From: Candidatus Bathyarchaeota archaeon
Lineage (GTDB): Archaea; Thermoproteota; Bathyarchaeia; Bathyarchaeales; Bathycorpusculaceae
Length of the DNA: 64,000 nt
Direction of reading: 5' to 3'
NCBI GenBank assembly: GCA_963811105.1
Contig: CAWEPZ010000011.1
Span: 1,280,001-1,344,000, forward strand
A program made the translations under genes and the position numbers. Every line of letters begins with the position of its first letter. The first letter of the stretch is position 1. This document shows, piece by piece, positions 11,681-24,104 of this stretch. The notes under the pieces were generated by a model. It did no database searches, was not told where the DNA came from, and was given only the letters and a program-made list of their open reading frames with translations.

Positions 11681-12050
11681 TGTACTTCAGCTTCGCGCCT
11701 TTAGCAAATATAAAAAGGAGTTATAAACGTTACCATCAGAAATGAGAAAGCGAGTGCCATTGCTATCTGAATGATGTTTGAGCCTTTATCTATTCAGGTT
11801 AAACCAATATCTTGTGTGCCCTTATGCTTTGCGGTCGAAATTTTTAAGATTAGAATTATGGATGTAAAAGTTGCGACTTTCCTTTGAAATTTTTTTTCCA
11901 GATGCTCACTATTACTTTTGATTAGTCAATTTTTGGAGCCTAACTTAATTATCTTAATTTGTATTGGGCTAATGACACTGCAGTCCAATATCGCCTGTTC
12001 TCTTTGGCTGGAAATCTTTTTTACTCTGCTAAGGCAATGGTTCTATTCAA

Positions 12051-12174
12051 GCCGGGGTGGCGGAGTGGTTATCGCGCCAGCCTCGAGAATTGTAAAAAAG
12101 AGGGCTAAGACCGAAAGGCAAGATAGCTGGTGGGCTTAGTGCTCGCAGGGGTTCGAATCCCTTCCCCGGCGCCA
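12051..12174 (+). tRNA. tRNA-Ser(CGA) with 37-nt intron at 37/38 (12088-12124) and encoded CCA
   Basis: Acceptor GCCGGGG/CCCCGGC, G discriminator, anticodon stem CCAGC/GCTGG with loop CT-CGA-G^A, long variable arm, GGTTCGAATCC T-arm. Confidence 0.9.
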
Positions 12175-12401
12175 TTTTACCATTTAGAGCCAGGATGAAC
12201 TTGTTATACCAAAATAACCTATATGCTGCCTTATTTACTTATTGCCTTAACACTTTCAATGGCACTCGCGCTATCTGAATTCCCTTCAAATAAGCAAATT
12301 TTATATAAAGGCACAGTCTAAAAAGGAAGATAGATAAACCCCGAAAATCGGGTAGAAAAAAATTTTTCTAAACAAAGTTGTATCCTATTGAAGGTTAAGC
12401 C

Positions 12402-12836
12402 ATGATCTCGGACATTTCCAAAGGAACAGGAACAAAACTCTCCAGAAACGCCATTATACTTGCTATAATGATGATTGCGAACGTCGTGATAATCATCCTC
12501 TTAACTCCAATCGGCTTTGAGACCCGCCCGATATCCTCCTTGAAGACGCTCGGCTACATCGCGATTACTACCATTTTTGTCGGTCTCGCACTGGATCTGA
12601 CGTCAATCGTCCTCCTTCTCTTCAAGAGAGTTAGAGTCAGGTTGGCTTCGAGTCTGACGATCATCAGCTCGGTCCTCTTCTTCCTGATCATTTCGGTAGA
12701 TCGAACCGGTTCTTTCTTCTCGGTACCAACCCCTCCTGCAATTAACACCCTCGAATACCTCTTCACTGCCATACTAATCATAACTGTCTTCATAGCGTCA
12801 TTGGTTTACAGATGGAGTAAGACCTCTTCAAGCTAA
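12402..12836 (+). CDS. Hypothetical membrane protein (~4 TM)
   Basis: 144-aa ORF with four hydrophobic segments. Confidence 0.7.
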   Translation: MISDISKGTGTKLSRNAIILAIMMIANVVIIILLTPIGFETRPISSLKTLGYIAITTIFVGLALDLTSIVLLLFKRVRVRLASSLTIISSVLFFLIISVDRTGSFFSVPTPPAINTLEYLFTAILIITVFIASLVYRWSKTSSS

Positions 12837-12925
12837 TGACTTCAGTCGAACTCCAAACACAGAACACAGACAGGCCAGCATTTCGACAAATCGGACGGAA
12901 CGCTTTCTTGGATAGTCCTTGAACG

Positions 12926-13078
12926 CTCGATAGCCTCAACTTAGAGAAGCTCGGATTCAAGCATTCAGTACTCGCAGACACAGGCAGACCGTCTTATCAT
13001 CCCTCAGACCTTCTCAAGCTCTACGTTTACGGATACCTCAACCAGGTAAGATCAAGCCGGAAACTGAGAAAGAATTGA
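12926..13078 (+). pseudogene. IS1182-family transposase N-terminal fragment
   Basis: LDSLNLEKLGF...TGRPSYHPSDLLKLYVYGYLNQVRSSRKL resembles the DUF772 region; no start codon, ends next to the nikR stop. Confidence 0.8.
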
Positions 13079-13079
13079 T

Positions 13080-13499
13080 CTAAATTATTTCTGATTCATC
13101 TGTTGTCATAACAGAAAATTTAATTTGTTTGACTGGTTTGTTGGCCTTCAGCCCATCAATCAATTCCTTTAATCGGCTGGTCGGGCCTTTAATTACCATA
13201 ACCTCAAGACAACTAGTATCAGTCAGATGAGAATGAAGATAAGCCGTAATCATATCGCTGAATTCGTGTTGAAGTCTAAACAGTTCCTCGTTCTTTTCTT
13301 CTTTATTATAAAGAACCGAGATAGTGGCGATTACATTGCCTTTTTGTTCATCGAGCTTTTTGTATTCGGTTAAGTAACTTCGGAGCGCTTGTCTGAGGAC
13401 TTCGGATCTAGTTGCAGATTTTTGCTCTCCTAGCACTGCATCTAATTCTTCAAGCAACTCCGTAGGCAATGAAAGACTGATAATGCTCATTTTTGTCAC
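13080..13499 (-). CDS. nikR: NikR-family metal-responsive regulator (RHH + ACT)
   Basis: IISLSLP...RSEVLRQALR; metal ligands retained in LQHEF...HSHL...SCLEV. Confidence 0.88.
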   Translation of the reverse strand: MTKMSIISLSLPTELLEELDAVLGEQKSATRSEVLRQALRSYLTEYKKLDEQKGNVIATISVLYNKEEKNEELFRLQHEFSDMITAYLHSHLTDTSCLEVMVIKGPTSRLKELIDGLKANKPVKQIKFSVMTTDESEII

Positions 13500-13625
13500 C
13501 TTTCATTATGTTTTATTGTTCCAGTTTAATAAATTGCTCAGCTAAGATGCGTTTATGTCTCGAGGTATTCACTGGTAATTATTATCAGAGGGCTGTTAAA
13601 TCTCAGTTCCTCAGAAAAAACGCTT

Positions 13626-13657
13626 AGTTATTAAAAAAATGGCAAAACTTAATAACT
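13626..13657. promoter_or_regulatory. Putative NikR operator
   Basis: Perfect inverted repeat AGTTATTAA-N14-TTAATAACT, i.e. TTATTA-N16-TAATAA, the half-site spacing of the E. coli NikR operator; ends 37 bp upstream of the ABC operon. Confidence 0.7.
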
Positions 13658-13694
13658 TCTCAAGGCTATGGGCTTTTAGGAAGGAAGTGTTTTC

Positions 13695-14633
13695 ATGAGG
13701 AAAAGAACTTACGTAATAGTCGTAGTTTTGGTAGCAATAATCCTCGCAGGAACTGCTTTAACGTTATATTTTTCAAATAGTACAACGCCCGGCACAAGTT
13801 CAAAATTAAAAGTTGTTGCAACATTTTATCCATTGTATGATTTTGCACAAAATGTAGGGGGCAACAGAACTGACGTCTCAATCCTTGTTCCTGAAACTGT
13901 TGATGTGCATGCTTTTGAACCAACGCCATCTTCAATAGCAGAGGTCTCAAGTGCAGACGTGTTAATTTACGACGGAGCTGGACTAGAACCATGGATTCAA
14001 GACGTAATTAGTGCAGCTGGAAACACAAAACTTATCCAAGTAGACTCAAGCCAAGGAATCAACCTCCTTCCAGTACCATCACAATTTCAAAGAGGTAACC
14101 AAACAATTGACCCTCACATCTGGCTTGATCCCTTAAACGCAAAACAACAAGTAAACAATATTCTTCGAGGATTAATCAAGGCTGACCCTGCTGACAGCCA
14201 GTATTTCACCCAAAATGCACAAGCTTATGACGCTAAATTCGACAACTTGAACTCTTTAGCAATAAACGCCACTACAGACACAGCAACAAAATACTTTGTA
14301 ACCTTCCATGAAGCCTTCGCCTACTTCGCACATCAATATAACGTTACACAGCTTGCGATTTCAGGCCCATTCGAGGAAGAACCAACACCCACTGATATCC
14401 AGAACGTAATTAATGCAATTAACCAATATCACCTAAGATATGTAGGCTATGAATCGCTTGAAAACCAAGCAATATCCCAATCTATCAGCAGCCAAACAAA
14501 CGCGACTCTCATCAACATGAACCCCATCGAAGGGCTGACAACACAAGAAAAAGATAGAGGAGACAACTACATAACTCTCATGCAACAGAACATAAATAAT
14601 ATTCATTTGGCGTTGACTAATGTCGGAACCTAA
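13695..14633 (+). CDS. Metal ABC transporter substrate-binding protein (ZnuA/TroA family)
   Basis: VVATFYPLY, DVHAFEP, DPHIWLDP, TFHEAFAYF; N-terminal anchor. Confidence 0.93.
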   Translation: MRKRTYVIVVVLVAIILAGTALTLYFSNSTTPGTSSKLKVVATFYPLYDFAQNVGGNRTDVSILVPETVDVHAFEPTPSSIAEVSSADVLIYDGAGLEPWIQDVISAAGNTKLIQVDSSQGINLLPVPSQFQRGNQTIDPHIWLDPLNAKQQVNNILRGLIKADPADSQYFTQNAQAYDAKFDNLNSLAINATTDTATKYFVTFHEAFAYFAHQYNVTQLAISGPFEEEPTPTDIQNVINAINQYHLRYVGYESLENQAISQSISSQTNATLINMNPIEGLTTQEKDRGDNYITLMQQNINNIHLALTNVGT

Positions 14634-15381
14634 ACCAATCGTCGAAATACGCGATCTAAGCGTCAAATATCCAAACGGAGTTATGGCTCTCGAAGGCATA
14701 AACTTAGACGTAAATCAGAAAGACCTGATTGCGCTCATAGGACCTAATGGCGCTGGAAAATCAACACTCCTAAAAGTCATTTTGGGATTAACAAAAGCTA
14801 CAAGCGGCTCAATCAAACTTTTCGGGAGCCCGGACTTAGGTAAAAATCTAAAATATGTCGGTTATGTGCCGCAAAGTGCGCAAGCAAGAGACCCAAACTT
14901 GCCCTTTAGTGTTTATGAGACAGTTATGCTTGGAAGAACTCCAGTTGCAGGGTTATTTCATGGAATGGGCGATAAAGACAGGCAAAAGGTTGAGGAAACG
15001 CTCAAACTCTTTGGAATATATGAGCTTAAAGATAGAAAAATTGGTCAACTCTCAGGTGGTCAATCACAACGTGTTTTCCTGGCAAAAGCGATGGTTGCGG
15101 AGCCCAAATTGCTTTTGCTTGATGAGCCAACTAGCGGGGTAGATACGTCTTCGAAAAAAGAGTTCTATAATATTCTGGATCGCTTAAACAAGGAGCGTGG
15201 GATAACTGTTATTTTATCTTCTCATGACATAGGTGTAATAACAAAGATAGCAAACAGAGTTCTTTGTGTAAACAAGTCACAGTTCTTCTGTGGAGAAAAC
15301 GAAGACTTCTCTGCAAACGTTGAGATTCATAAAATGTACGATCACCCTGTGGAGATTATGGATCATCATGACCATCCTTGA
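14620..15381 (+). CDS. Metal ABC transporter ATPase (ZnuC-like)
   Basis: GPNGAGKS, LSGGQ, LLLDEP, SSHD, His-rich C-terminus. Confidence 0.93.
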   Translation: MSEPKPIVEIRDLSVKYPNGVMALEGINLDVNQKDLIALIGPNGAGKSTLLKVILGLTKATSGSIKLFGSPDLGKNLKYVGYVPQSAQARDPNLPFSVYETVMLGRTPVAGLFHGMGDKDRQKVEETLKLFGIYELKDRKIGQLSGGQSQRVFLAKAMVAEPKLLLLDEPTSGVDTSSKKEFYNILDRLNKERGITVILSSHDIGVITKIANRVLCVNKSQFFCGENEDFSANVEIHKMYDHPVEIMDHHDHP

Positions 15382-16207
15382 TGTCCTTTCTTTGCTTCAA
15401 GCACCTTTTATACAACGTGCATTCATCATAAGTATAATTATTGCTATTCTCAGCTCTATCCTAAGCATTTTTATTGTTTTAAAGAAAATCTCATTGATAG
15501 GTGATGGGCTGTCTCACACAGCCTTTGGAGGATTAGCCCTTGGATACTACCTCAGTGTTTTTCCTATTTGGATAGCGGGAATTGTTGTGGTGTTAGGGTC
15601 TATTGGGATCAATAAGGCTTTACGTTCGACAAAGATTTCAGGTGACGCTGCAGTTGCTGTTTTTCTTCAACTTGGTCTTGCAGGAGGCATAACCTTGTTG
15701 AGCCTTGCAAGGGGCTTTGGCGTTAACCTTGAGAGCCTGCTTTTTGGAAGCATCCTGATAGTAAATATGGACCAAATTATAACGGCGGCGGTTGTTGCAG
15801 CAATAGCCCTTGGCATAATTTTTGTATTCTTCAAAGAAATGGTTTACATTACTTTTGATGAAACTCAGGCCCGAGCTGCAGGAATCAAGACATGGGTTTT
15901 TGACTATCTTCTGAGCATTCTCGCCGGTGTGGTTGTAATTATTGCTATACCGATAGTTGGTGTACTCTTAATTTCAGCATTACTTGTGTTACCTGCTTTA
16001 ATAAGCACTCAAATCACAAAATCTTTTAAGCAAACTGTCATCCTTGCACCAATAATTGGCCTTATCACGGTGATATTCGGCATATTGGCATCCGTAATTT
16101 TAGACGCAGCTCCTGGAGGAACAATTGTCCTTGTTGGCTTAGCGATTCTTGCAATAGTTTTTGTGGCAAAAAGAATCCAGAGTGCTATGAATAATCCAGA
16201 AAAATGA
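15368..16207 (+). CDS. Metal ABC transporter permease (ZnuB-like)
   Basis: GDGLSHTAFGG, LFGSIL, TFDETQARAAG; start at the ATG overlapping the ATPase end. Confidence 0.92.
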   Translation: MTILDVLSLLQAPFIQRAFIISIIIAILSSILSIFIVLKKISLIGDGLSHTAFGGLALGYYLSVFPIWIAGIVVVLGSIGINKALRSTKISGDAAVAVFLQLGLAGGITLLSLARGFGVNLESLLFGSILIVNMDQIITAAVVAAIALGIIFVFFKEMVYITFDETQARAAGIKTWVFDYLLSILAGVVVIIAIPIVGVLLISALLVLPALISTQITKSFKQTVILAPIIGLITVIFGILASVILDAAPGGTIVLVGLAILAIVFVAKRIQSAMNNPEK

Positions 16208-16311
16208 GGCTGAATGTAGTAGAAGAATCTTAAAAATTAACAAACACTTAGAAAAAAAGTATGGAGAACACACTGCTGAAAAAAAGCGGTTTCGAACCTT
16301 AGACAGTGTGA

Positions 16312-16450
16312 GTCTCTACCGGGCTCATCCCCAACCAAGCATTTTCCTTATTTTCAAAGCGGCTTACTAGTAAATTGGGGTTCGAATCTCTTCCCCGGCG
16401 CCATTTTTTAGAGCTGATTTCAAGGCTATTTTTTAGAATCAAGTATAATT
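16312..16450 (+). repeat. 139-bp att-junction repeat, copy 1 (65-bp arm + 27-bp tRNA core + 47-bp arm)
   Basis: Aligns ungapped with 18518-18656, 8 mismatches by manual count. Confidence 0.92.
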
Positions 16451-16601
16451 TAACCCTATTTAGCATTTCTTTCAAAACAATCCAAATTTGAGAAGGATTT
16501 CTTAATAGTAAAAATTCGCGAATTCGCAACTTAGTTCAATTTAAGGCAAGATCGTTCGATTAGAATTTAGTCGGTGAAGCCGCTGGGTCCCAGACCCAAA
16601 T

Positions 16602-16731
16602 GAGAGTGTATAAAAACTCAAATTAAGTTTTTGAAATTGCGTCTATATCTGAAAACACACCATGAAGCTCCCACCAAATCACAATAAACTTAGTAATTTT
16701 CTGAAGTTGAAATCAGTTTTTACACAGTCTC
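16602..16731. mobile_element. 130-bp MITE-like element with IS1182-like terminal inverted repeats
   Basis: Left end GAGAGTGTATAAAAACT; right end reverse complement GAGACTGTGTAAAAACT (15/17); no coding capacity. Confidence 0.65.
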
Positions 16732-16909
16732 AAAAGGGTTCGAAACCTTTCAAGATTAGTTGGCACGCTGTTATATTTTTTGCCCTGCTATTTTCTTGAT
16801 TAAAATTTAATAAAACCCAAACCAAAATTTTTCATGTAATTCTGTATATATATATTGGATAAGGGTATTATTTAGTTAAATAAGGTTTATTTTTTATAAG
16901 GTTAAAGTT

Positions 16910-18461
16910 ATGCCCGTTAACCCAAATAATTCTAAAGTTTCAAAAGAGCCCACCAAAGCAGCCGTTGTGCATAAGAGCTTGCTTGGAATTAAGAAAAAGT
17001 ATGATGCTCTTTTTAACCAAAACATTAACGGATTGGCTTACTGCAAAACAATATTCGATGACAGCAATCAGCCCATTGATTATGTTTTTCTTGAAGTTAA
17101 CAATGCATTTGAGAAGCAAACGGGTCTAAAAAAAGAAAACGTTGTGGGTAAACACGCAACCCAAATAATTCCAAACATCAAAAATTCAGCTTTCGATTTT
17201 ATAAACATCTACGGTAAAGTTGTGCTTACTGGAGAACCAGTTGAAACCTACCAAGAAGACCTAAAACGTTGGCACTCTGTCTATGTTGTCAGCCCAAAAA
17301 AGACCTTTTTCCTCTCTCTGTTTACAGATATAACAAACCGCAAGCAAGCTGAAGAAACATTAGCTTATCAGGCTGATTTATTGTCAAAGGTTCATGAAGC
17401 GCTTGTTGGCATTGATGCAAACTACATAATTACGTATTGGAATAGTGCTGCTGAAGAAATATTTGGCTGGACAAAAGAAGAAGTACTTGGAAAAAACTCT
17501 GAAGAATTACTGCAAACAAAAATTGAAGGCTCCTCACGCGATGAAGGAATAACTAAGTTGCTGGCGCCGGGTCATTATGAAGGCGAAGTGCAGTATTTAC
17601 GCAAGGATGGTACATACTTTTTTGCTGATGTTAATGCCGTCACCATAAAAGACGCTAATGGGAAACTGCAGGGCATTATGACTGTTGCTCGAGACATTAC
17701 TGAACGTAAGCAGATGGAAGCTAAACTTGAAAGATATAGCAGGCACTTGGAGGATTTGGTTGAGGAGCGAACTAAACAGCTCAGTGATGGTGAACGGTTA
17801 GCTGCTATCGGTCAAACTGCGGGCATGGTTGGACATGACATACGCAATCCTTTGCAGGCTATCACCAGCGATGTCTACTTGGCTAAAACAGAGTTGGCTT
17901 CGACATCTGAAAGTGAAGAGAAAAAAGAACGCATTGGAAAGCTTGGATGAGGTTGAAAAGAACGTAGAGTACATCAACAAGATTGTGGCGGACCTACAAG
18001 ACTATGCGAGATCCATCAAGCCAATGGTACAGGAAACTGACCTGGAGGCGATCATTGAAAATTTGCTGCTAAAGAATGACGCCCCCAAGAACATCAAAGT
18101 CTCTTCCAGCGTAGAGAATGACTCAAAGAAAATCGTGGCTGACCCTGATTTGTTAAAACGGATTCTGTACAACTTGATGACGAATGCTGTGCAGGCTATG
18201 CCGGAAGGCGGAAAGCTAAGCGTCCACGCTTACAGAGACGGCGGCGACTATGTCATAACGGTGAAGGATACAGGTATGGGCATACCAAAAGAAGCGAAAA
18301 GCAAGTTGTTCACGCCGCTGTTCACCACTAAAGCTAAGGGTCAAGGCCTCGGCTTAGCTGTCGTTAAACGGATGACTGAAGCGATAGGCGGCACAGTATC
18401 ATTTGAGAGTCAAGAAGGCAAAGGAACAACTTTCACAGTACGTTTGCCGACTTTGAATTGA
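16910..18461 (+). pseudogene. PAS-PAS histidine kinase, frameshifted in the A6 run at 17921-17926
   Basis: PAS domains and H-box GHDIRNPL in ORF 16910-17950; N, G1, F and G2 boxes (NAVQA, DTGMG, FTPLFTTK, GQGLGL) in the +1 frame to 18461. Confidence 0.85.
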
Positions 18462-18517
18462 CATTCAAACTTAGAAAACTGTTTTTGCTTAGTAGACTCG
18501 AACTCGAAACGGTTAGG

Positions 18518-18656
18518 GTCTCTACCGGGCTCATCCCCAACCAAGTATTTTCCTTATTTTCAAAGCGGCTTACTAGTAAATTGGGGCTCGAATCCCTTCC
18601 CCGGCGCCATTTTTTAGAGCTAATTTAAAGGTTATTTTATATAATCAAGTATAATT
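18518..18656 (+). repeat. 139-bp att-junction repeat, copy 2
   Basis: Near-identical to 16312-16450; tRNA core at 18583-18609. Confidence 0.92.
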
Positions 18657-18770
18657 CTGCCGCCAAGTCTATCTGTGAGAGTGAAGGGAGTAAGAGGTCC
18701 TGTGGCGGATGGAGAACTGCCAAAATGTAAAGAATTTGGAATAAGGATAGCAAATCAACTAAATCCCTAA
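18657..18770 (+). pseudogene. Flavodoxin-like C-terminal remnant
   Basis: LPPSLSVRVKGVRGPVADGELPKCKEFGIRIANQLNP*; begins exactly where the repeat arm ends. Confidence 0.55.
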
Positions 18771-18824
18771 ATCCAAATCATAGAAAAAGAGATAATTTAG
18801 GACTTATTAGAATTGACGGTCTCT

Positions 18825-18911
18825 ATGATTCTAGACGTTGTTTGTGGTATGGAAATTGATCAGAAAAACTCAAAACGGGAAACAGAGCATAAAAATAAAG
18901 TTATCGAATGA
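18825..18911 (+). pseudogene. Truncated YHS/TRASH-domain protein
   Basis: MILDVVCGMEIDQKNSKRETEHKNKVIE*; DxVCGM motif present, YYFCS half missing. Confidence 0.6.
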
Positions 18912-19069
18912 ATCGCCCGATCAGTACGGCTGTTTTTTTGTTTGGATTTCTCCTAATTCTTTTTTTAATATCCTGTACATTTTTTAAGCATATTCTAAAT
19001 TATTAGGTTAAGACAAAAAAAATTGAAAAATGGAAAGAAAATGGCGATTTCTTAACTTTAGTAGTCGAG

Positions 19070-20695
19070 TTATTTCATTATTGCTTTGAGGTCTTCGTCT
19101 GCTGTTTTAATCGGCATGATGTTGAACTTCTCAACCAGTACCTTTAGTATGTTTGGCGTTATGAATGCGGGCAAGCTTGGTCCTAACCGAATGTCTTTGA
19201 TGCCGAGATACAGCAAGGACAGCAAAATAGCAACCGCCTTCTGTTCATACCACGAGATCACCAGTGAGAGAGGCAAATCGTTGACACCAACTCCGAAAGC
19301 GTCTGCCAAAGCCTGCGCAATTTTTACGGCTGAGTACGCGTCATTGCATTGTCCGACGTCGAGTAACCGTGGGATGTCATCGATTGTGCCTAAGTCTTTG
19401 TCGAAAAAACGGAATTTGCCGCATGCCAACGTTAGGATGATGGTGTTGCTTGGTGCTTTCTCCACGAATTCTGTGAAGTAGCTGCGTCCAGGTTTTGCAC
19501 CGTCACATCCACCCACTAAAAGGAAGCGTTTAATATGCCCGCTTTTGACGGATTCAATGACTTTGCCTGCTACACTTAAAACAGCGTTTCTACCGAATCC
19601 GACCAGAACGGTTTTGCCTTCTACGTCGTCTGTGAAGCCTGGCATCGCTAATGCTTTGTTAATGACTGGTGAGAAGTCTTTGCCTTCGATGTGTGGTACG
19701 CCTGGGTAACCGACCGGTCCAGTTGTGAAGATGTTGCCTTTGTAGCTTTCGACGGGTCGTTGGATGCAGTTGGTTGTCATGAGTATGGCGCCTGGGAACT
19801 GGGCGAATTCTTTCTGTTGGTTTTGCCATGCGGTGCCGTAATGACCGTAGAAATTAGAGTACTTCTTGAGTCCGGGGTAACCATGGGTAGGAAGCATTTC
19901 GCCGTGAGTGTAGATGGTGATGCCTTTGCCCTGCGTTTGCTTTAGAATCTCTTCTAAGTCGATTAGGTCGTGTCCTGAAACAACGATAGCTTTGCCCTTT
20001 TTGTGTCCCAACGGCACTTTTGTGGGAACTGGATGTCCATAGGTTTCCGTGTTGCCTGCATCGAGAAGTTCCATGGCACGGATGTTGATTTCACCGCACT
20101 TCAAAACTAAACCCACAAAATCGTTTACTCCAAGCGATTTGTCAAATGGAGCCACTAATCCTTGATGGATGAAATCGAAGACTTTCGGGTCTTTTTTGCC
20201 TAAAAGATACGCATGGTAAGAGTAAGCTGCAACTCCTTTTAACCCATAAGTTAGAAGCCACTGCAACGAATGAAGGTCCGGGTCAATTGTCGTGTCGGAG
20301 TTTATTCCGTGTTGTTTGCCCTGTGCAACTAAGTCTGCCATGGTGTTTTCCAACGGCAAATAAGTTGCTTTGACGCCTAATTTTTTATGCAGTTGGTCGT
20401 GTAGTTCAGCGGTTTTTTTGATGTAGGCAATGATTGCTTCTGGATCAAAATTCACGTTAGTTAAGGTTACGAAGAGTGCTTCAGCGGTGAAGACGTTGAT
20501 TTTTTCGTCTTTGAAGCCAGCTTCGTCTGCTTTTATAACAAGTTGGCTTAGTTCCCTTAGCTTGTAAACTAAGAGGTCTTGAAGGTTCGCAACGTTGGCT
20601 GTTTTGCCGCAGACCCCAGCGATTGTGCAGCCTGTGCCTTTGGCTGTTTGTTCGCATTGGTAACAGAACATTTGATTCTGACTCATACTTTTCAC
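19070..20695 (-). CDS. hcp: Hybrid cluster protein (hydroxylamine reductase)
   Basis: MFCYQCEQT...CT..GVCGK, SGHDL, HGEMLP, TTNC, GGCDG, LACGK, GQCND, WYEQKA. Confidence 0.97.
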   Translation of the reverse strand: MKSMSQNQMFCYQCEQTAKGTGCTIAGVCGKTANVANLQDLLVYKLRELSQLVIKADEAGFKDEKINVFTAEALFVTLTNVNFDPEAIIAYIKKTAELHDQLHKKLGVKATYLPLENTMADLVAQGKQHGINSDTTIDPDLHSLQWLLTYGLKGVAAYSYHAYLLGKKDPKVFDFIHQGLVAPFDKSLGVNDFVGLVLKCGEINIRAMELLDAGNTETYGHPVPTKVPLGHKKGKAIVVSGHDLIDLEEILKQTQGKGITIYTHGEMLPTHGYPGLKKYSNFYGHYGTAWQNQQKEFAQFPGAILMTTNCIQRPVESYKGNIFTTGPVGYPGVPHIEGKDFSPVINKALAMPGFTDDVEGKTVLVGFGRNAVLSVAGKVIESVKSGHIKRFLLVGGCDGAKPGRSYFTEFVEKAPSNTIILTLACGKFRFFDKDLGTIDDIPRLLDVGQCNDAYSAVKIAQALADAFGVGVNDLPLSLVISWYEQKAVAILLSLLYLGIKDIRLGPSLPAFITPNILKVLVEKFNIMPIKTADEDLKAIMK

Positions 20696-20780
20696 CTTGG
20701 TTAACTATAATGGCTTCAATGCAGATAGGGTTTACCCCGAACATGCGAGGGATTACAGAAAAACATTCACAGATGCCGGG

Positions 20781-21407
20781 TTAGATTTCCCGTTTAAAAT
20801 AATGCTCCAGCAACCTGCGCATACCCCGCCGCATAGTCTCAGAAAGCGTCGAGGTGCTAATTCTAAGCTTCGTCGCAAGCTCCTCCATACCAATTTGCCG
20901 CGGATAATCAAAAAACCCACTCTTCAGAGCTAACCAAAAAATCCTCTCCTGGTTCTCGGTTAAGACACCGATTTGCTGCTCAAACTTGCCGATTTTACGC
21001 ACGTTAACTTTGTGCCCAGCTTTTTCTAAGTCATCTATTATGCCTTTGTAGGCTTCAAAAGTCGGCACCATGAAGCTGTAGGTTATGATGTTCTCGTGCA
21101 TGCTTTTGCCCGACACCAAAAAAGCGTCGTGTGCCAAAATTGTGTTGCAGACTTCGCAGCCTTCGCTCTCCAGCCAAACCGCTGATTTGCCTTCCACATG
21201 GCCTTTAGCTGCCAGTTCTTTGGGGACTTTGTGGGCTTGGTCTTCGCCGACATCCATTAGGTGCCGCACGCAGCCGCCGCTTGAGCTGCGCACGTCAACA
21301 ACTTTTAGGTGGCTAAACCCCAAGGAAGCAAGTTTCTTTACCATTTTACACTGCTTATTTTCAACTTCAATTACAACATGATAAGGTTCACGCCAAGCAT
21401 CGACCAA
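20781..21407 (-). CDS. Bat-type HTH_10 transcriptional regulator with Cys-containing sensor domain
   Basis: LTENQERIFWLALKSGFFDYPRQIGMEELA...STLSETMRRG; CxxC in the N-terminal domain. Confidence 0.85.
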   Translation of the reverse strand: MVDAWREPYHVVIEVENKQCKMVKKLASLGFSHLKVVDVRSSSGGCVRHLMDVGEDQAHKVPKELAAKGHVEGKSAVWLESEGCEVCNTILAHDAFLVSGKSMHENIITYSFMVPTFEAYKGIIDDLEKAGHKVNVRKIGKFEQQIGVLTENQERIFWLALKSGFFDYPRQIGMEELATKLRISTSTLSETMRRGMRRLLEHYFKREI

Positions 21408-21871
21408 ACCAATCAGCCTCGTCTGTCTAAACTCAAAAACAAGCAGTTAAACATACGTCTATTCGACCAACCATAAATTGGTTTTCTGATAGTTTTTTTA
21501 CAAAGAAAAACTGGAGCTTGAACTGCTACTTAATCCAAAAGGTAATTGGTAATTAGATTAACATATTGTCTATGGGTTGGTAGATCTATAGTGTAATTTT
21601 GTGACGAGTTTAACCCGAAACTTTTGCATCAACTCTTAGGAGAATACTGGTAATGATGATTAAAGCTGTTGAACGTGAGACTTTCTTAATTAGCGTCTTC
21701 TGAACTTCAGATGTGAATTTTGCCGGTTCTGCACTTAAACTGCGTAAGTCTCTATGGTTCTGTATTCAAAGGGTTCAAGACCTATATACCCTCAAGCGAT
21801 TAAAGCAAACTCACAGAAGAAACCCCCTGTAAGAAGAGGAGTCGGTATGTTTACTTCAAAATAATCCCGGG

Positions 21872-21912
21872 TTTACTAGTAAATTGGGGTTCGAATCCCT
21901 TCCCCGGCGCCA
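21872..21912 (+). repeat. Fourth tRNA-Ser core preceded by the palindrome TTTACTAGTAAA
   Basis: TTTACTAGTAAATT followed by the exact 27-bp core at 21886-21912. Confidence 0.92.
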
Positions 21913-21947
21913 TCAACTTACTTTTGGACAAATCCCCGGCTAGCGGG

Positions 21948-22740
21948 TTATTTGGGCTTTTTGAAGATTTTGCTCTTGTCGTAATCGCAAACGTATTGGA
22001 ATCCTGCTTCTAGCAGTTTGCGTGCCTCTTCAAGTGTTCAAGCGACTTTGACAACATAATCCTGATCGCCGAAGTCTATCAATTGGGTATATCGCATCGT
22101 ATTCTTGATGTTCTTGTGACCAAGCGTTCGCATAAAGTGAAGGATATCTTTAGTTCTGTGGTTCTCCATAGTGGCTTTCCAGTGTCGCATAGTATGAAAA
22201 GTTATTCTTAACAGTCGCGGGTTTTTACTTTTATCGGCAGCTATTTTTCTGTTGCGCTCGAAAAGTCGAGCTGTTGTCGCTAGTTTGCTCCTCCAAAGAC
22301 GAACTTGTTTCTCTTTGGCAGGTCTTCTATTCGTTCCAGTAGTGTGAGGTTCTTAGGATTCTGGGATTGCTATGTTTTTCGGGTGTTATCCTTACGGTTC
22401 TTTTTTCAGCATCGATGTCTGTCCATTCTATTTGCCAGCCTTCGCCTCGCCTTGCACCTGTTTCTTTCAGCAGCTGGGTAGATGTGCCTGTCTATTTTCC
22501 TAATGAGGCGATTAAGTAGTCGATTTCACTTTCTGTCGGTATGAAAGATAGCTTTTCGACGGCTTTGATTCTGGGTGGATTCCATGTTCCGCCTAGTGAA
22601 TTGAGGGTTCTTAGGAATCTTCTTAGGCACTGAGCGTATTGAACCAGACTTTCTACGGGTGTGAAGAATAAGACGAAGTCAGAGTTTAGAAAGCGGATGA
22701 TGATTTCGATGTTAACCTTGGAACAGTGAAATTTTCGCAT
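21948..22740 (-). pseudogene. Tyrosine recombinase/integrase, disrupted
   Basis: Manual translation: KETGARRGE (catalytic R), TFHTMRHWKAT (HxxR), LGHKNIKNTMRY (H, Y); in-frame stops and frameshifts; its stop lies 35 bp from the att core. Confidence 0.88.
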
Positions 22741-22820
22741 CCATCACAGGCCTAACCGGAATTATTATCGGGCTATTTGTAGGGAAAAACCTTGATTCTT
22801 ACCAGGTGGAACCAAGCTTA

Positions 22821-23138
22821 ATGGCGAGGGGCAAACCTTGTACAGTTGAAGATGAAAGGCAACTTCGACAATTCTTAACAGAAAAAAAGTCTAGGCGTTC
22901 TATTGCAAAGATTCTGGGCAAATCCCTGACTTCTGTGCAGATGAAAACATCGCGCTTAGGCTTAGTAGTTGTTGATGGCGTGTTTTTTTCACTCCCATCA
23001 ACAACTACCTTTGATAAGTTAATTTTGCCAATTGAGTTACCTTCAATTGAGCAAGAACTAAAGATCTTGGTTGCAGCTTTGAAATATCTTGAAACGCCGA
23101 ATTTAGATAAAACTGATGTTTTGCGTTTACGCGGCATA
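22821..23138 (+). pseudogene. HTH/Myb-like protein N-terminal part, fused in frame to the DUF3800 remnant
   Basis: MARGKPCTVEDERQLRQF...SIAKILGKSLTSVQMKTSRLGL; divergent from the integrase. Confidence 0.55.
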
Positions 23139-23766
23139 GACCTCGGTTTTTCTGAAAAAGCAACAAAATATTTTATAGTAGCTTACGTAGAATGCGAGAC
23201 ACCGGTAAGACTCCGAACAGAGCTAAGACGCCTTCTAAAACGTCTACACCAAAAAGAAAGATACTCTAAGAGCCGAAACGAGCTCAAATTCTCAAGAATG
23301 GATGAATATTGCAGAAAAAGCGCCCTAACAAAAAATAATCGAGTGTGACGCTTCACTAGGCGCCGTCGTTTTAGAGAAGGCACGTGTAAAAGACGAACTA
23401 AGGAAAGATCCGCCAATTCTCTACAACTGGTTTCTAGTCCACAACATAATGCTCTCGCTTATTCCCCAAATCACCGCTGGAAACAAAATACAGATAAACT
23501 TCGACAAAAGCCTCCCAATGTAGAGAATAAACCAATTCAATTCATACGTAACAAACAAGGCCAGCTACCTCTTATATGAAACAGGAAACAGCCCCCCACC
23601 CAACTGTATTTTATTAAATCACGTAGCTTCTGAAAAAAAAGAATTCTGCCTGCAAGCAGCCGACGCAATAGCAGGAGCATACTTCCAAAAATATGAAAAA
23701 CAAAACGATGAATATGTCAAAATCATTGAGCATAAAGTTGGTTACTTCAAATATCTCTGGAAATAA
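23139..23766 (+). pseudogene. DUF3800-family protein, disrupted
   Basis: DLGFSEKATKYFIVA (preceding DESG lost), ELKFS, FDKS, C-terminal LQAADAIAGA; several frameshifts and stops. Confidence 0.7.
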
Positions 23767-23773
23767 CAGAAAC

Positions 23774-23843
23774 GCGACCCCTATCCTAATACTCCAATCC
23801 CACAAACGCGCAGGCATCATTGCCTCGGATAGGACTTACTCGC
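23774..23843 (+). ncRNA. Candidate structured RNA downstream of the DUF3800 gene
   Basis: Nested pairings GCGA/TCGC and CCTATCC/GGATAGG, plus hairpin AGGCA-TCAT-TGCCT. Confidence 0.5.
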
Positions 23844-24104
23844 AATAAAACAATATTACCTTAAAATTATTTAAGCCTTATTCTTCATGAATCCACTTCC
23901 CCTTCTTCATTAATCTTAATCCTTTGGTAACCCCTAAGGTAACCCCTTCAAAGCTGAGGCTGTAAAATTCTGCAAACAAAAGCACAGATGCCACGCGAAC
24001 CCGCGTTTGAACCCTCGGATATAGAATAGTGAAATTACTTTGAGGGTTCTTAAGCTTCAATGCCTTTACTGTCTATAATATGAAATAGTAAAAAGAGGAA
24101 TAAT

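Follow-up and report, generated by a model that had tools for sequence, protein, structure and literature searches.

The window analysed here, a 64,000-nt stretch of a Candidatus Bathyarchaeota archaeon chromosome (assembly GCA_963811105.1, contig CAWEPZ010000011.1, positions 1,280,001 to 1,344,000), carries two 139-bp repeats, J1 (16312..16450) and J2 (18518..18656), and a shorter relative, J3 (21872..21913), downstream of a tRNA-Ser(CGA) gene. Taken as a whole, the sequence comparisons tip the balance towards J1 and J2 being composite attachment (att) junctions in a tandem accretion array, similar to those of cis-mobilizable elements (CIMEs), at the 3' end of this tRNA gene. The observations that bear on this are: the repeats themselves; the intact anchor tRNA; the modular exchange of blocks between genomes; one pair of empty and occupied sites; and the conservation of a palindrome and of a right-arm box.

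The three junctions separate segments A (before J1), B (between J1 and J2) and C (between J2 and J3). An ungapped alignment of 16312-16450 with 18518-18656 contains 8 mismatches in 139 nt, exactly the count given in the first-pass annotation of this DNA. They lie at 16340, 16381, 16389, 16416, 16421, 16426, 16433 and 16436, and are divided between the left 65 nt (1), the 27-nt core at 16377-16403 (2) and the right 47 nt (5). A repeat search of the window returned the same pair as 159 nt at 90%, and BLAST as 139 nt at 94%. The abrupt end of identity described for both sides, 65 bp before and 47 bp after the core, is likewise seen: successive flanking 20-mers match at 12/20, 8/20 and 5/20 leftward and at 6/20, 4/20 and 4/20 rightward, with a faint ~20-nt extension of the repeat on the left (16292-16311) in which TCGAAC is common to both copies. 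BLAST detects no similarity between segments A, B and C outside the junctions, and their cargo is unrelated, as had been stated: a metal-uptake operon in A, a PAS histidine kinase in B, and a hybrid-cluster protein with an HTH_10 regulator in C.

Within its own genome, the full 139 nt is common to J1 and J2 only. This would fit a single event in which homologous recombination or unequal crossing-over duplicated one junction, without any specialised system. However, the DNA flanking the two copies is unrelated, the palindrome and right arm recur in many genomes, and arrays of the same build are found elsewhere. This explanation, the least probable of those considered, is already contradicted by the cross-genome conservation.

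The two long junctions share an arm-core-arm layout. In J1, the left (P-type) arm (16312..16376, + strand; 64/65 identical to J2) bears the palindrome TTACTAGTAA at 16364-16373. The core (16377..16403, + strand) copies the T arm, the acceptor 3' strand and the CCA of the tRNA without the upstream 5' half, and the right arm (16404..16450, + strand; 42/47 identical to J2) comprises a T run, TTAGAGC and a box, GGCTATTTT. J2, also on the + strand, is divided in the same way into left arm (18518-18582), core (18583-18609) and right arm (18610-18656). J3 (+ strand) consists of the 12-bp palindrome TTTACTAGTAAA (21872-21883), TT and a 27-bp core identical to the tRNA (27/27); its left and right arms are unlike those of J1 and J2. 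The cores of J1 (16377), J2 (18583) and J3 (21887) all lie on the strand of the tRNA gene and reproduce 27-44 nt of its 3' end without 5' halves. The palindrome named in the first-pass annotation, TTTACTAGTAAA, is thus present at J3, but as written it is missing from J1 and J2. There, the 12-mer is CTTACTAGTAAA, so that the perfect palindrome is 10 bp long (TTACTAGTAA). With one mismatch tolerated, the motif TTTACYRGTAAANTGG matches three times in the window as against 0.03 expected from 100 shuffles.

The anchor of the array, on its attL side, is the intact tRNA-Ser(CGA) gene at 12051..12174 (+ strand). It contains an anticodon-loop intron, is recognised by the Rfam tRNA model at 47.6 bits with a 41-nt insertion and by the intron mode of ARAGORN as Ser(cga), and is overlooked by ARAGORN in its default setting. 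Its variable arm is GC-rich (GGGCTTAGTGCTC). An intact tRNA at one end and displaced same-strand direct repeats of the tRNA end are therefore both found in this array. The surrounding DNA is archaeal chromosome, with genes for ribosomal proteins L2, L4 and L3, two thermosome genes and a Vps4-type ATPase; the relatives of the integrase described below and the matching public records carry the names Bathyarchaeia or Bathyarchaeota.

If the array grew by successive site-specific insertion, the process would involve: regeneration of the tRNA, at each insertion, from the core copy of the incoming element; displacement of the older core copy downstream, along with the left (P) arm of the incomer; and reliance of A, B and C, as satellites or decayed elements, on a tyrosine integrase acting in trans. 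An internal junction would then consist of the P arm of its left neighbour, the core, and the P' arm of its right neighbour, making it formally attP-like. With the full core and both arms kept, any two junctions could recombine, and could excise or re-insert a circle. Such recombination between junctions would account for the changed block order and for the tRNA-Ser(GGA) location seen in related genomes. We infer from these arrangements an acting recombinase, a place of strand crossing and past or present mobility of the array in this strain; the array may well be frozen in the present strain today. The attP-like character proposed in the first-pass annotation agrees with the arm-core-arm make-up and with the recurrence of the segments as units elsewhere, but the absence of an integrase from all three segments does not agree with it.

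The palindrome and the flanking arms

The palindrome TTTACYRGTAAA is located 2 nt upstream of the core, at the place of the tRNA variable arm. It is found in none of 23 intact tRNA-Ser(CGA) genes (sets of 11 and 12), all of which have a GC-rich arm. Because the intact genes carry that arm at the same position, the palindrome is not derived from the tRNA.

A scan with the pattern TTACNNGTAAANTGGNGNTNNANTCCC, taking one genome per species, placed the palindrome at no fewer than 124 genome loci, in every case beside tRNA 3' fragments; 80 of these at least 124 loci were fetched and analysed. By our estimate, a handful of chance matches would be expected for 19 fixed bases in ~1.2e12 positions. The pattern fixed the outer palindrome bases, so covariation of the halves is not judgeable from this set. 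Grouped by record title, 45 of the 80 loci belong to Bathyarchaeia or Bathyarchaeota, 14 to names beginning Thermoplasmat-, 11 to Nitrososphaerota, Thaumarchaeota or Conexivisphaerales and 2 to Hadesarchaea, with one each in Archaeoglobi, Micrarchaeota and Thermoproteota and 2 in unnamed archaea. The remaining 3 are labelled bacterial (L104, L106 and L108, in Krumholzibacteriaceae, Methylomirabilota and Spirochaetales bins); their flanks resemble the archaeal ones, which makes mis-binning likely.

ARAGORN places a tRNA over the motif at 0/80 of these loci, and Rfam at 0/20 sampled. The acceptor strand that follows the T arm varies: it is CCCCGGC with discriminator G in 21/80, CCCCTGC with A in 11/80, and others elsewhere. 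The first was verified as tRNA-Ser(CGA), and the second as tRNA-Leu(CAA) in one Thermoplasmatales genome; by our own reading, which is not a census, both acceptor types belong to class II tRNAs. The two free central bases of the palindrome are pyrimidine-purine in 77/80 loci (TA 43, TG 14, CG 13, CA 7). Extra copies of the motif occur to the right of the core at 6, 3 and 8 of 80 loci in three 50-nt windows (17/240), and more rarely to the left, at 0, 2 and 2 of 80 and 1/77 (5/317).

These features indicate that the palindrome is borne by the element, and that it is most likely a site for the arm-binding part of an integrase or for an accessory protein that bends DNA. The first-pass annotation had proposed a protein-binding site here, and the case for a candidate site is now stronger: the sequence stays constant while the acceptor changes with the host tRNA, and it is missing from the intact genes. 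Its conservation beside changing tRNA ends makes a concrete binding-site prediction.

A motif of the form GTCTC...AAGGGTTCRARACC, T-loop-like and near-palindromic, was noted at 16729-16751, at 21748-21790, in locus L004 at ~1390-1440 and on contig C2 of the same genome at ~429100. Several palindromes have it 90-130 nt upstream, and one copy is within segment B. It may serve as an additional arm site or be a remnant left by a different junction.

The tRNA-like content of the junctions could also be read as RNA genes, namely split-tRNA 3' halves or small RNAs resembling tRNA halves, with the palindrome as a leader hairpin. Consistent with this are the T run that follows the CCA and, by our reading, AT-rich, TATA-like stretches before many palindromes. 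In contrast, the 5' half is missing upstream, the complement of the left arm occurs nowhere in the genome (BLAST, both strands), and the anchor tRNA is complete. Rfam gives no match on either strand of 16150-16900 and none in 20 other loci, and the junctions fold no better than shuffles, with z values of +0.96, +0.22, +0.95 and -0.09 (DNA parameters). RNA genes are therefore very improbable. A split, permuted or minus-strand tRNA in the left arm was considered separately and rejected: Rfam detects none, and no split half is present. The left arm does match the D arm of tRNA-Asn and the end of tRNA-Gln, over just 12-13 nt (E 0.011 and 0.68), lengths too short for use.

The right arm recurs in an alignment of 22 flanks, comprising J1, J2, those of nine intact tRNA-Ser genes and those of eleven fragments. 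The common elements are a T run, (ACCAG)TTAGAGC, and a box around GGCTATTTT 22-30 nt past the CCA. Scanned as GGCTTATTTT with 2 mismatches tolerated, the box is present at 18/38 metagenome loci with a Ser core, from a looser second metagenome scan, as against 1/23 control windows, and at 17/80 genome loci as against 7/78 control windows. A general tRNA trailer was rejected as an account of the box, its frequency downstream of the genome's own tRNAs (2/43) being background (211/5000).

To the left of the core, TT and the palindrome alone are general, and the DNA farther left falls into classes. The first is an inverted tRNA-Gln 3' end, identical over 28/28 nt to the genome's own genes, which is found at 4/80 genome and 8/38 metagenome loci. 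With the last 28 nt of tRNA-Gln inverted, two tRNA 3' fragments face apart with the palindrome between them. Loci in which this class was seen left of the palindrome include L226, L240, L246, L248, L250, L252, L256, L117 and L132. The second class, GGATTTGAACCCA, occurs at 3/80 genome and 7/38 metagenome loci. The outer left arm of J1 and J2, GAGTCTCTACCGGGCTCATCCC, has one other member, L236 (1/38 metagenome and 0/80 genome loci), and an exact 24-mer of the J1/J2 left arm matched 0 times in the metagenome contigs. The left arm of a further junction of this genome, at C1:113874, is common to two other genomes over ~95 nt. A non-palindromic left-arm type (…GACATCGCCTCTTTCACT followed by the core) is common to C1:110605 of this genome and to C22:6251 of genome G406 (L221). 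At the latter, an integrase end follows the arm and core, and the very element that carries the integrase may have this type as its distal arm.

The aligned junctions thus bear out only part of what the first-pass annotation had drawn from J1 and J2. It had allowed that arm conservation might be limited to these two copies; the palindrome, at 124 or more loci, and the right arm, in the genomes aligned, extend well past them. The palindrome and the right-arm box recur, but the outer left arm is bound to its class. The 65 + 27 + 47 nt proposed as the minimal cis element do not hold as a whole: with one further member among 38 metagenome loci and none among 80 genome loci, the 65-nt left arm is a class feature and not a universal minimal element.

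Exchange of blocks and integrase remnants

Comparison with relatives indicates that the tRNA-Ser(CGA) locus is an insertion hot spot with variable downstream content. Twelve tRNA-Ser(CGA) loci of the same genus were inspected over 16 kb downstream. The tRNA is intact in 12/12, and rpL3/L4/L2 lie upstream of it in 8/12. The cargo of the window (NikR, ZnuA, kinase, hybrid-cluster protein, HTH_10, thermosome) occurs within those 16 kb in 0/12, and the downstream DNA of these loci maps to scattered sites in the genome studied here.

The segments themselves recur as units elsewhere, in another order or at another tRNA-Ser. At the start of segment A, window positions 12125-12926, which include the gene orf144, match genome G383 (L054, 5396-6199) at 90% over 804 nt. 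In G383, the orf144 block sits behind tRNA-Ser(GGA); ~170 nt later comes TTTTTTACTGGTAAATT, then a core of the GGA type, and the ~75 nt of flank after that core are homologous to the DNA directly behind tRNA-Ser(GGA) in the genome of the window. The two ends of the inserted block, which is ~0.95 kb long and whose only open reading frame (ORF) encodes a small membrane protein, share the repeat ATCCCCCTCCCGGCGCCATTTTAC. For this block, then, the tRNA-Ser(GGA) site is occupied in G383 and empty in the genome of the window. For segments B and C the indication of an empty site is indirect, in the form of the different downstream content at 12/12 loci of the genus.

The NikR-ZnuABC block, also in segment A, matches G399 (L041, 10685-13805) at 84% over 3128 nt. 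In the order of blocks behind the tRNA it comes third in G399 and first in the window, and in both the palindrome and core follow 160-190 nt after the permease gene. From the J1 core through its right arm and 150 nt beyond (16377-16602), the window is 83% identical to tRNA-Ser(CGA) and its flank in G404. Arrays of the same build are present in G399, G403 (tRNA and 4 junctions in 24 kb), G404 and G407. At locus L133, two tRNA-end cores stand 15 nt apart with TT, the palindrome and TT alone between them, as though an array unit had lost its content by deletion.

Beside J3 lies a broken tyrosine recombinase gene (21948..22743, - strand) that reads towards the junction. Its pieces are spread over three frames, with PF00589 detected on two of them and an in-frame TGA at 22038-22040; the original stop codon and the J3 CCA are 35 nt apart. 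Over its final 29 residues the product aligns with the C-terminus of a 427-aa paralogue that is intact (52%, E 1e-8). Intact paralogues in the same genome adjoin tRNA-Asp and tRNA-Gly, and combine PF00589 with an N-terminal zinc ribbon. The family falls below the curated cut-offs for integron integrases and XerA (TIGR02249, 28.8-39.9 versus 265 bits; NF040815, 79.6 versus 220). The order of palindrome, core and integrase end is found also at C1:113874 of this genome and in L081/G406. The upstream end of the relic is overlapped by a dispersed repeat of ~420 bp (22718..23137), of which the genome has ~30 more (72-88%), spread over nine contigs. This repeat contains an inner inverted piece of 42-44 nt (22965-23008), and a tandem run of it was seen at C9:7354-7804.

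Several results weigh against the reading of these junctions as att sites of an accretion array. The first concern the recombinase. Pfam finds no recombinase domain in 12175-21869, and hence no integrase inside each element; an integrase lies within 400 nt of only 1/80 palindrome loci; PF00589 occurs nowhere within 20 kb of a palindrome junction in 5 genomes; and tblastn with 5 integrase queries, at E up to 0.01, found 0/48 array context loci (~750 kb, other genomes) with a match. The integrases that do adjoin Ser cores are all remnants (J3, C1, two in G406 and one in G277). Next, a free form is not apparent: the palindrome pattern has 0 matches in 2.9 million viral contigs, and joints skipping a segment in 11800-22800 are absent from the contigs of 4 public runs (3 DNA libraries and 1 RNA library), a weak negative confined to contigs. 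These contigs break at repeats, and run X1 covers B and C and not 13268-16203, making it unusable as evidence of absence. The rest concern the position of some junctions. In the Thermoplasmatales genome G401 (C1:489740-517773; L203, L216-L218), a tRNA-Leu(CAA) and two junctions ~14 kb apart lie on one strand, and the DNA between the junctions holds the genome's only PheRS alpha gene, Nop, dihydroorotate dehydrogenase and others. The PheRS alpha gene in this position means that not every inter-junction segment is dispensable mobile cargo. Orphan junctions far from a matching tRNA are also present in the genome of the window, at C2:429k, C11:147k and C11:974k, that at C11:147k beside an insertion sequence (IS) copy in a variable region.

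Part of this evidence would suit frozen scars. On this explanation, which we consider unlikely, the junctions are the remains of full-size elements whose integrases were deleted; the arms are alike by descent, and nothing is mobile or functional now. The remnant state of every integrase next to a Ser core is in keeping with it, as is the IS remnant that occupies the place of a missing junction (12929..13075). Further, the integrase stop region at J3, GGTTATTTGGGC, 35 nt past the CCA, resembles in sequence and distance the box GCTTATTTTGGC, which lies 24-30 nt past the CCA in other junctions. By our reading of this likeness, the box could be what remains of an integrase gene after deletion, namely its last codons. 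Yet when 60 right flanks were compared with 125 integrases by blastx, no match fell below E 0.003 except at J3; with nothing convincing among the flanks, a right arm derived from the integrase C-terminus is kept just as a lead for this explanation. The left arms of J1 and J2 differ at 1/65 positions despite unrelated cargo. The copies of the 0.95-kb block at two different tRNA-Ser genes, each in its own genome, are 90% identical, which points to movement after any decay.

The housekeeping genes between the G401 junctions, the only PheRS alpha gene among them, and the orphan modules in the genome of the window would suit another explanation: that what moves is the junction module of ~100-150 bp (palindrome, tRNA-like piece and box), as a small dispersed repeat inserting between genes, and the cassettes are the chromosome in between. 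The C11:147k region, which matches several places in genomes of the genus at 75-82% over ~100 nt, adds to this. However, the core copies the 3' end of the host tRNA (27/27 at J3; of Leu type in Thermoplasmatales) and lies downstream of it in the same orientation, the comparison with G383 reveals insertion of a whole block and not of a module, and blocks common to several genomes have junctions at their ends. A mobile module is accordingly improbable, more so than frozen scars, and accretion at tRNA-Ser(CGA) is retained as the preferred reading.

Relation to known systems

Tandem islands at tRNA genes, in which a regenerated tRNA and displaced fragments mark the island ends, are treated in the Islander work (Hudson et al. 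2015, PMC4383910), and arrays of archaeal elements with tyrosine recombinases are mentioned in part of Krupovic et al. 2019 (PMC6563490). The array described here is like such islands in its intact tRNA at the end, its same-strand 3'-end repeats, its variable region and its integrase relic. It is unlike them in its consecutive integrase-less segments, among them a one-gene block of 0.95 kb, and in a 12-bp palindrome common to Ser- and Leu-type junctions across archaeal lineages.

CIMEs keep attL and attR and have lost the genes for integration and transfer, and in streptococci they take part in site-specific accretion (sections of Guedon et al. 2017, PMC5704250). Here too, A, B and C are each bounded by junctions and contain no recombinase. 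As with the streptococcal CIMEs, att-flanked segments without a recombinase are stacked at a tRNA 3' end beside an integrase-bearing element. In contrast to these, the host is an archaeon, no conjugative partner was seen, and the block order differs between genomes; mobilisation here is putative.

An integron is an array of cargo in which each block ends in a palindrome-bearing recombination site, with one integrase at one end. Its attC sites are imperfect inverted repeats that fold as single-strand hairpins, the integrase is of the IntI type, and attI is the anchor. The present array resembles this in part: blocks each end in a palindrome-bearing module, and one integrase gene stands at the array end. 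An attC-like hairpin, and with it an integron, was examined and rejected, the 139-nt single-stranded DNA folding no better than shuffles on both strands. Other differences are that the integrase scores far below the integron cut-offs and is not of the IntI type, that the anchor is a tRNA, that operon blocks lie on either strand, and that the integrase is at the end far from the tRNA. Integrons have been reported in Archaea (Ghaly et al. 2022, bioRxiv 10.1101/2022.02.06.479319; PMC9668308).

In other archaea, elements are trapped behind tRNA genes with dead integrase genes, a feature that the array shares with systems of the Sulfolobus spindle-shaped virus (SSV) type. SSV-type integrases and gene capture in archaeal chromosomes were reportedly the subject of She et al. 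in 2001. Unlike the SSV-type arrangement, the att core here lies 35 nt beyond the integrase stop and outside the ORF, and the gene owes its broken state to frameshifts, a stop and an inserted repeat, not to integration. Gene capture in archaeal chromosomes by such 'suicidal' integrases is covered in parts of Badel et al. 2020 (PMC7253208). In Caldiarchaeum, a mobile element is described as having scattered tRNA fragments (excerpts of Sugahara et al. 2012, PMC3293823), and the orphan junctions could be explained in this way. The fragment there is from the 5' part of tRNA-Thr, the element is 1.8 kb long and encodes a recombinase, and those excerpts describe no palindrome module.

Tandem tRNA islands and CIME accretion are thus already known, and what appears to be new is the palindrome module and the integrase-less arrays of Bathyarchaeia. 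No description of either was found in the portions consulted of open-access text, supplements excluded (PMC10848311 included). A wider proposal, tentative and rather doubtful at this stage, is that of a tRNA-anchored cassette system extending across archaeal phyla, in which small integrase-less blocks, some with just one gene, ending in TTTACYRGTAAA and the 3' end of a class II (Ser or Leu) tRNA, would be inserted, excised and reshuffled at tRNA-Ser or tRNA-Leu genes by a tyrosine recombinase acting in trans. If true, this would be gene capture functionally like that of integrons, on tRNA att sites and by double-stranded recombination.

Bathyarchaeia are abundant and uncultured, and their gene gain is little understood. 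Here, one tRNA locus in the genus gathers accessory blocks, in the window for metal uptake, a sensor kinase and a hybrid-cluster protein; the array of another genome holds ATP-citrate lyase with aconitase and isocitrate dehydrogenase. The junction module that bounds such blocks is recognisable from sequence alone. Were the junctions active, they would offer: an easy way to mark out, in archaeal metagenome bins, the blocks that have moved horizontally; a defined substrate, 139 bp long, on which a Bathyarchaeia integrase could be assayed for recombination for the first time; and a potential tool for site-specific insertion in archaea.

Cargo and neighbouring features

Segment A comprises orf144, the IS remnant and the NikR-ZnuABC genes together. 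The one-gene block (12175..12926, + strand) consists of a right arm, TTTTACCATTTAGAGCC..., and orf144 (12402-12836, + strand), which encodes a predicted 4-helix membrane protein with no Pfam or NCBIfam match. The IS remnant (12929..13075) is the N-terminal part of a transposase gene, whose 76-84% copies on C9 and C11 run on as a longer coding sequence; it is placed where a junction between orf144 and NikR-Znu would be expected and is missing. The remaining cargo of the segment (13080..16207), assigned by Pfam, is NikR on the - strand and ZnuA, an ABC ATPase and an ABC-3 permease on the + strand. A second NikR-ZnuABC operon is located at C2:418162-421252 of the same genome, at 86% DNA identity and without flanking junctions. 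Of the two, the one in the array appears to be a duplicate that was acquired.

Segment B (16451..18517, + strand) encodes a histidine kinase with PAS, HisKA and HATPase domains (Pfam) in overlapping ORFs at 16910-17950 and 17829-18461. At position 17921, within an A run, the contigs of 4 public runs have one base fewer, and the kinase frameshift may be strain-specific or an assembly error. Segment C (18657..21869, - strand) encodes the hybrid-cluster protein (19070-20695) and the HTH_10 regulator (20781-21407), both assigned by Pfam. Beyond the array, Rfam places a DUF3800-X RNA at 23772-23845 (- strand, 60.9 bits), adjoining broken DUF3800-like frames at 23329-23766.

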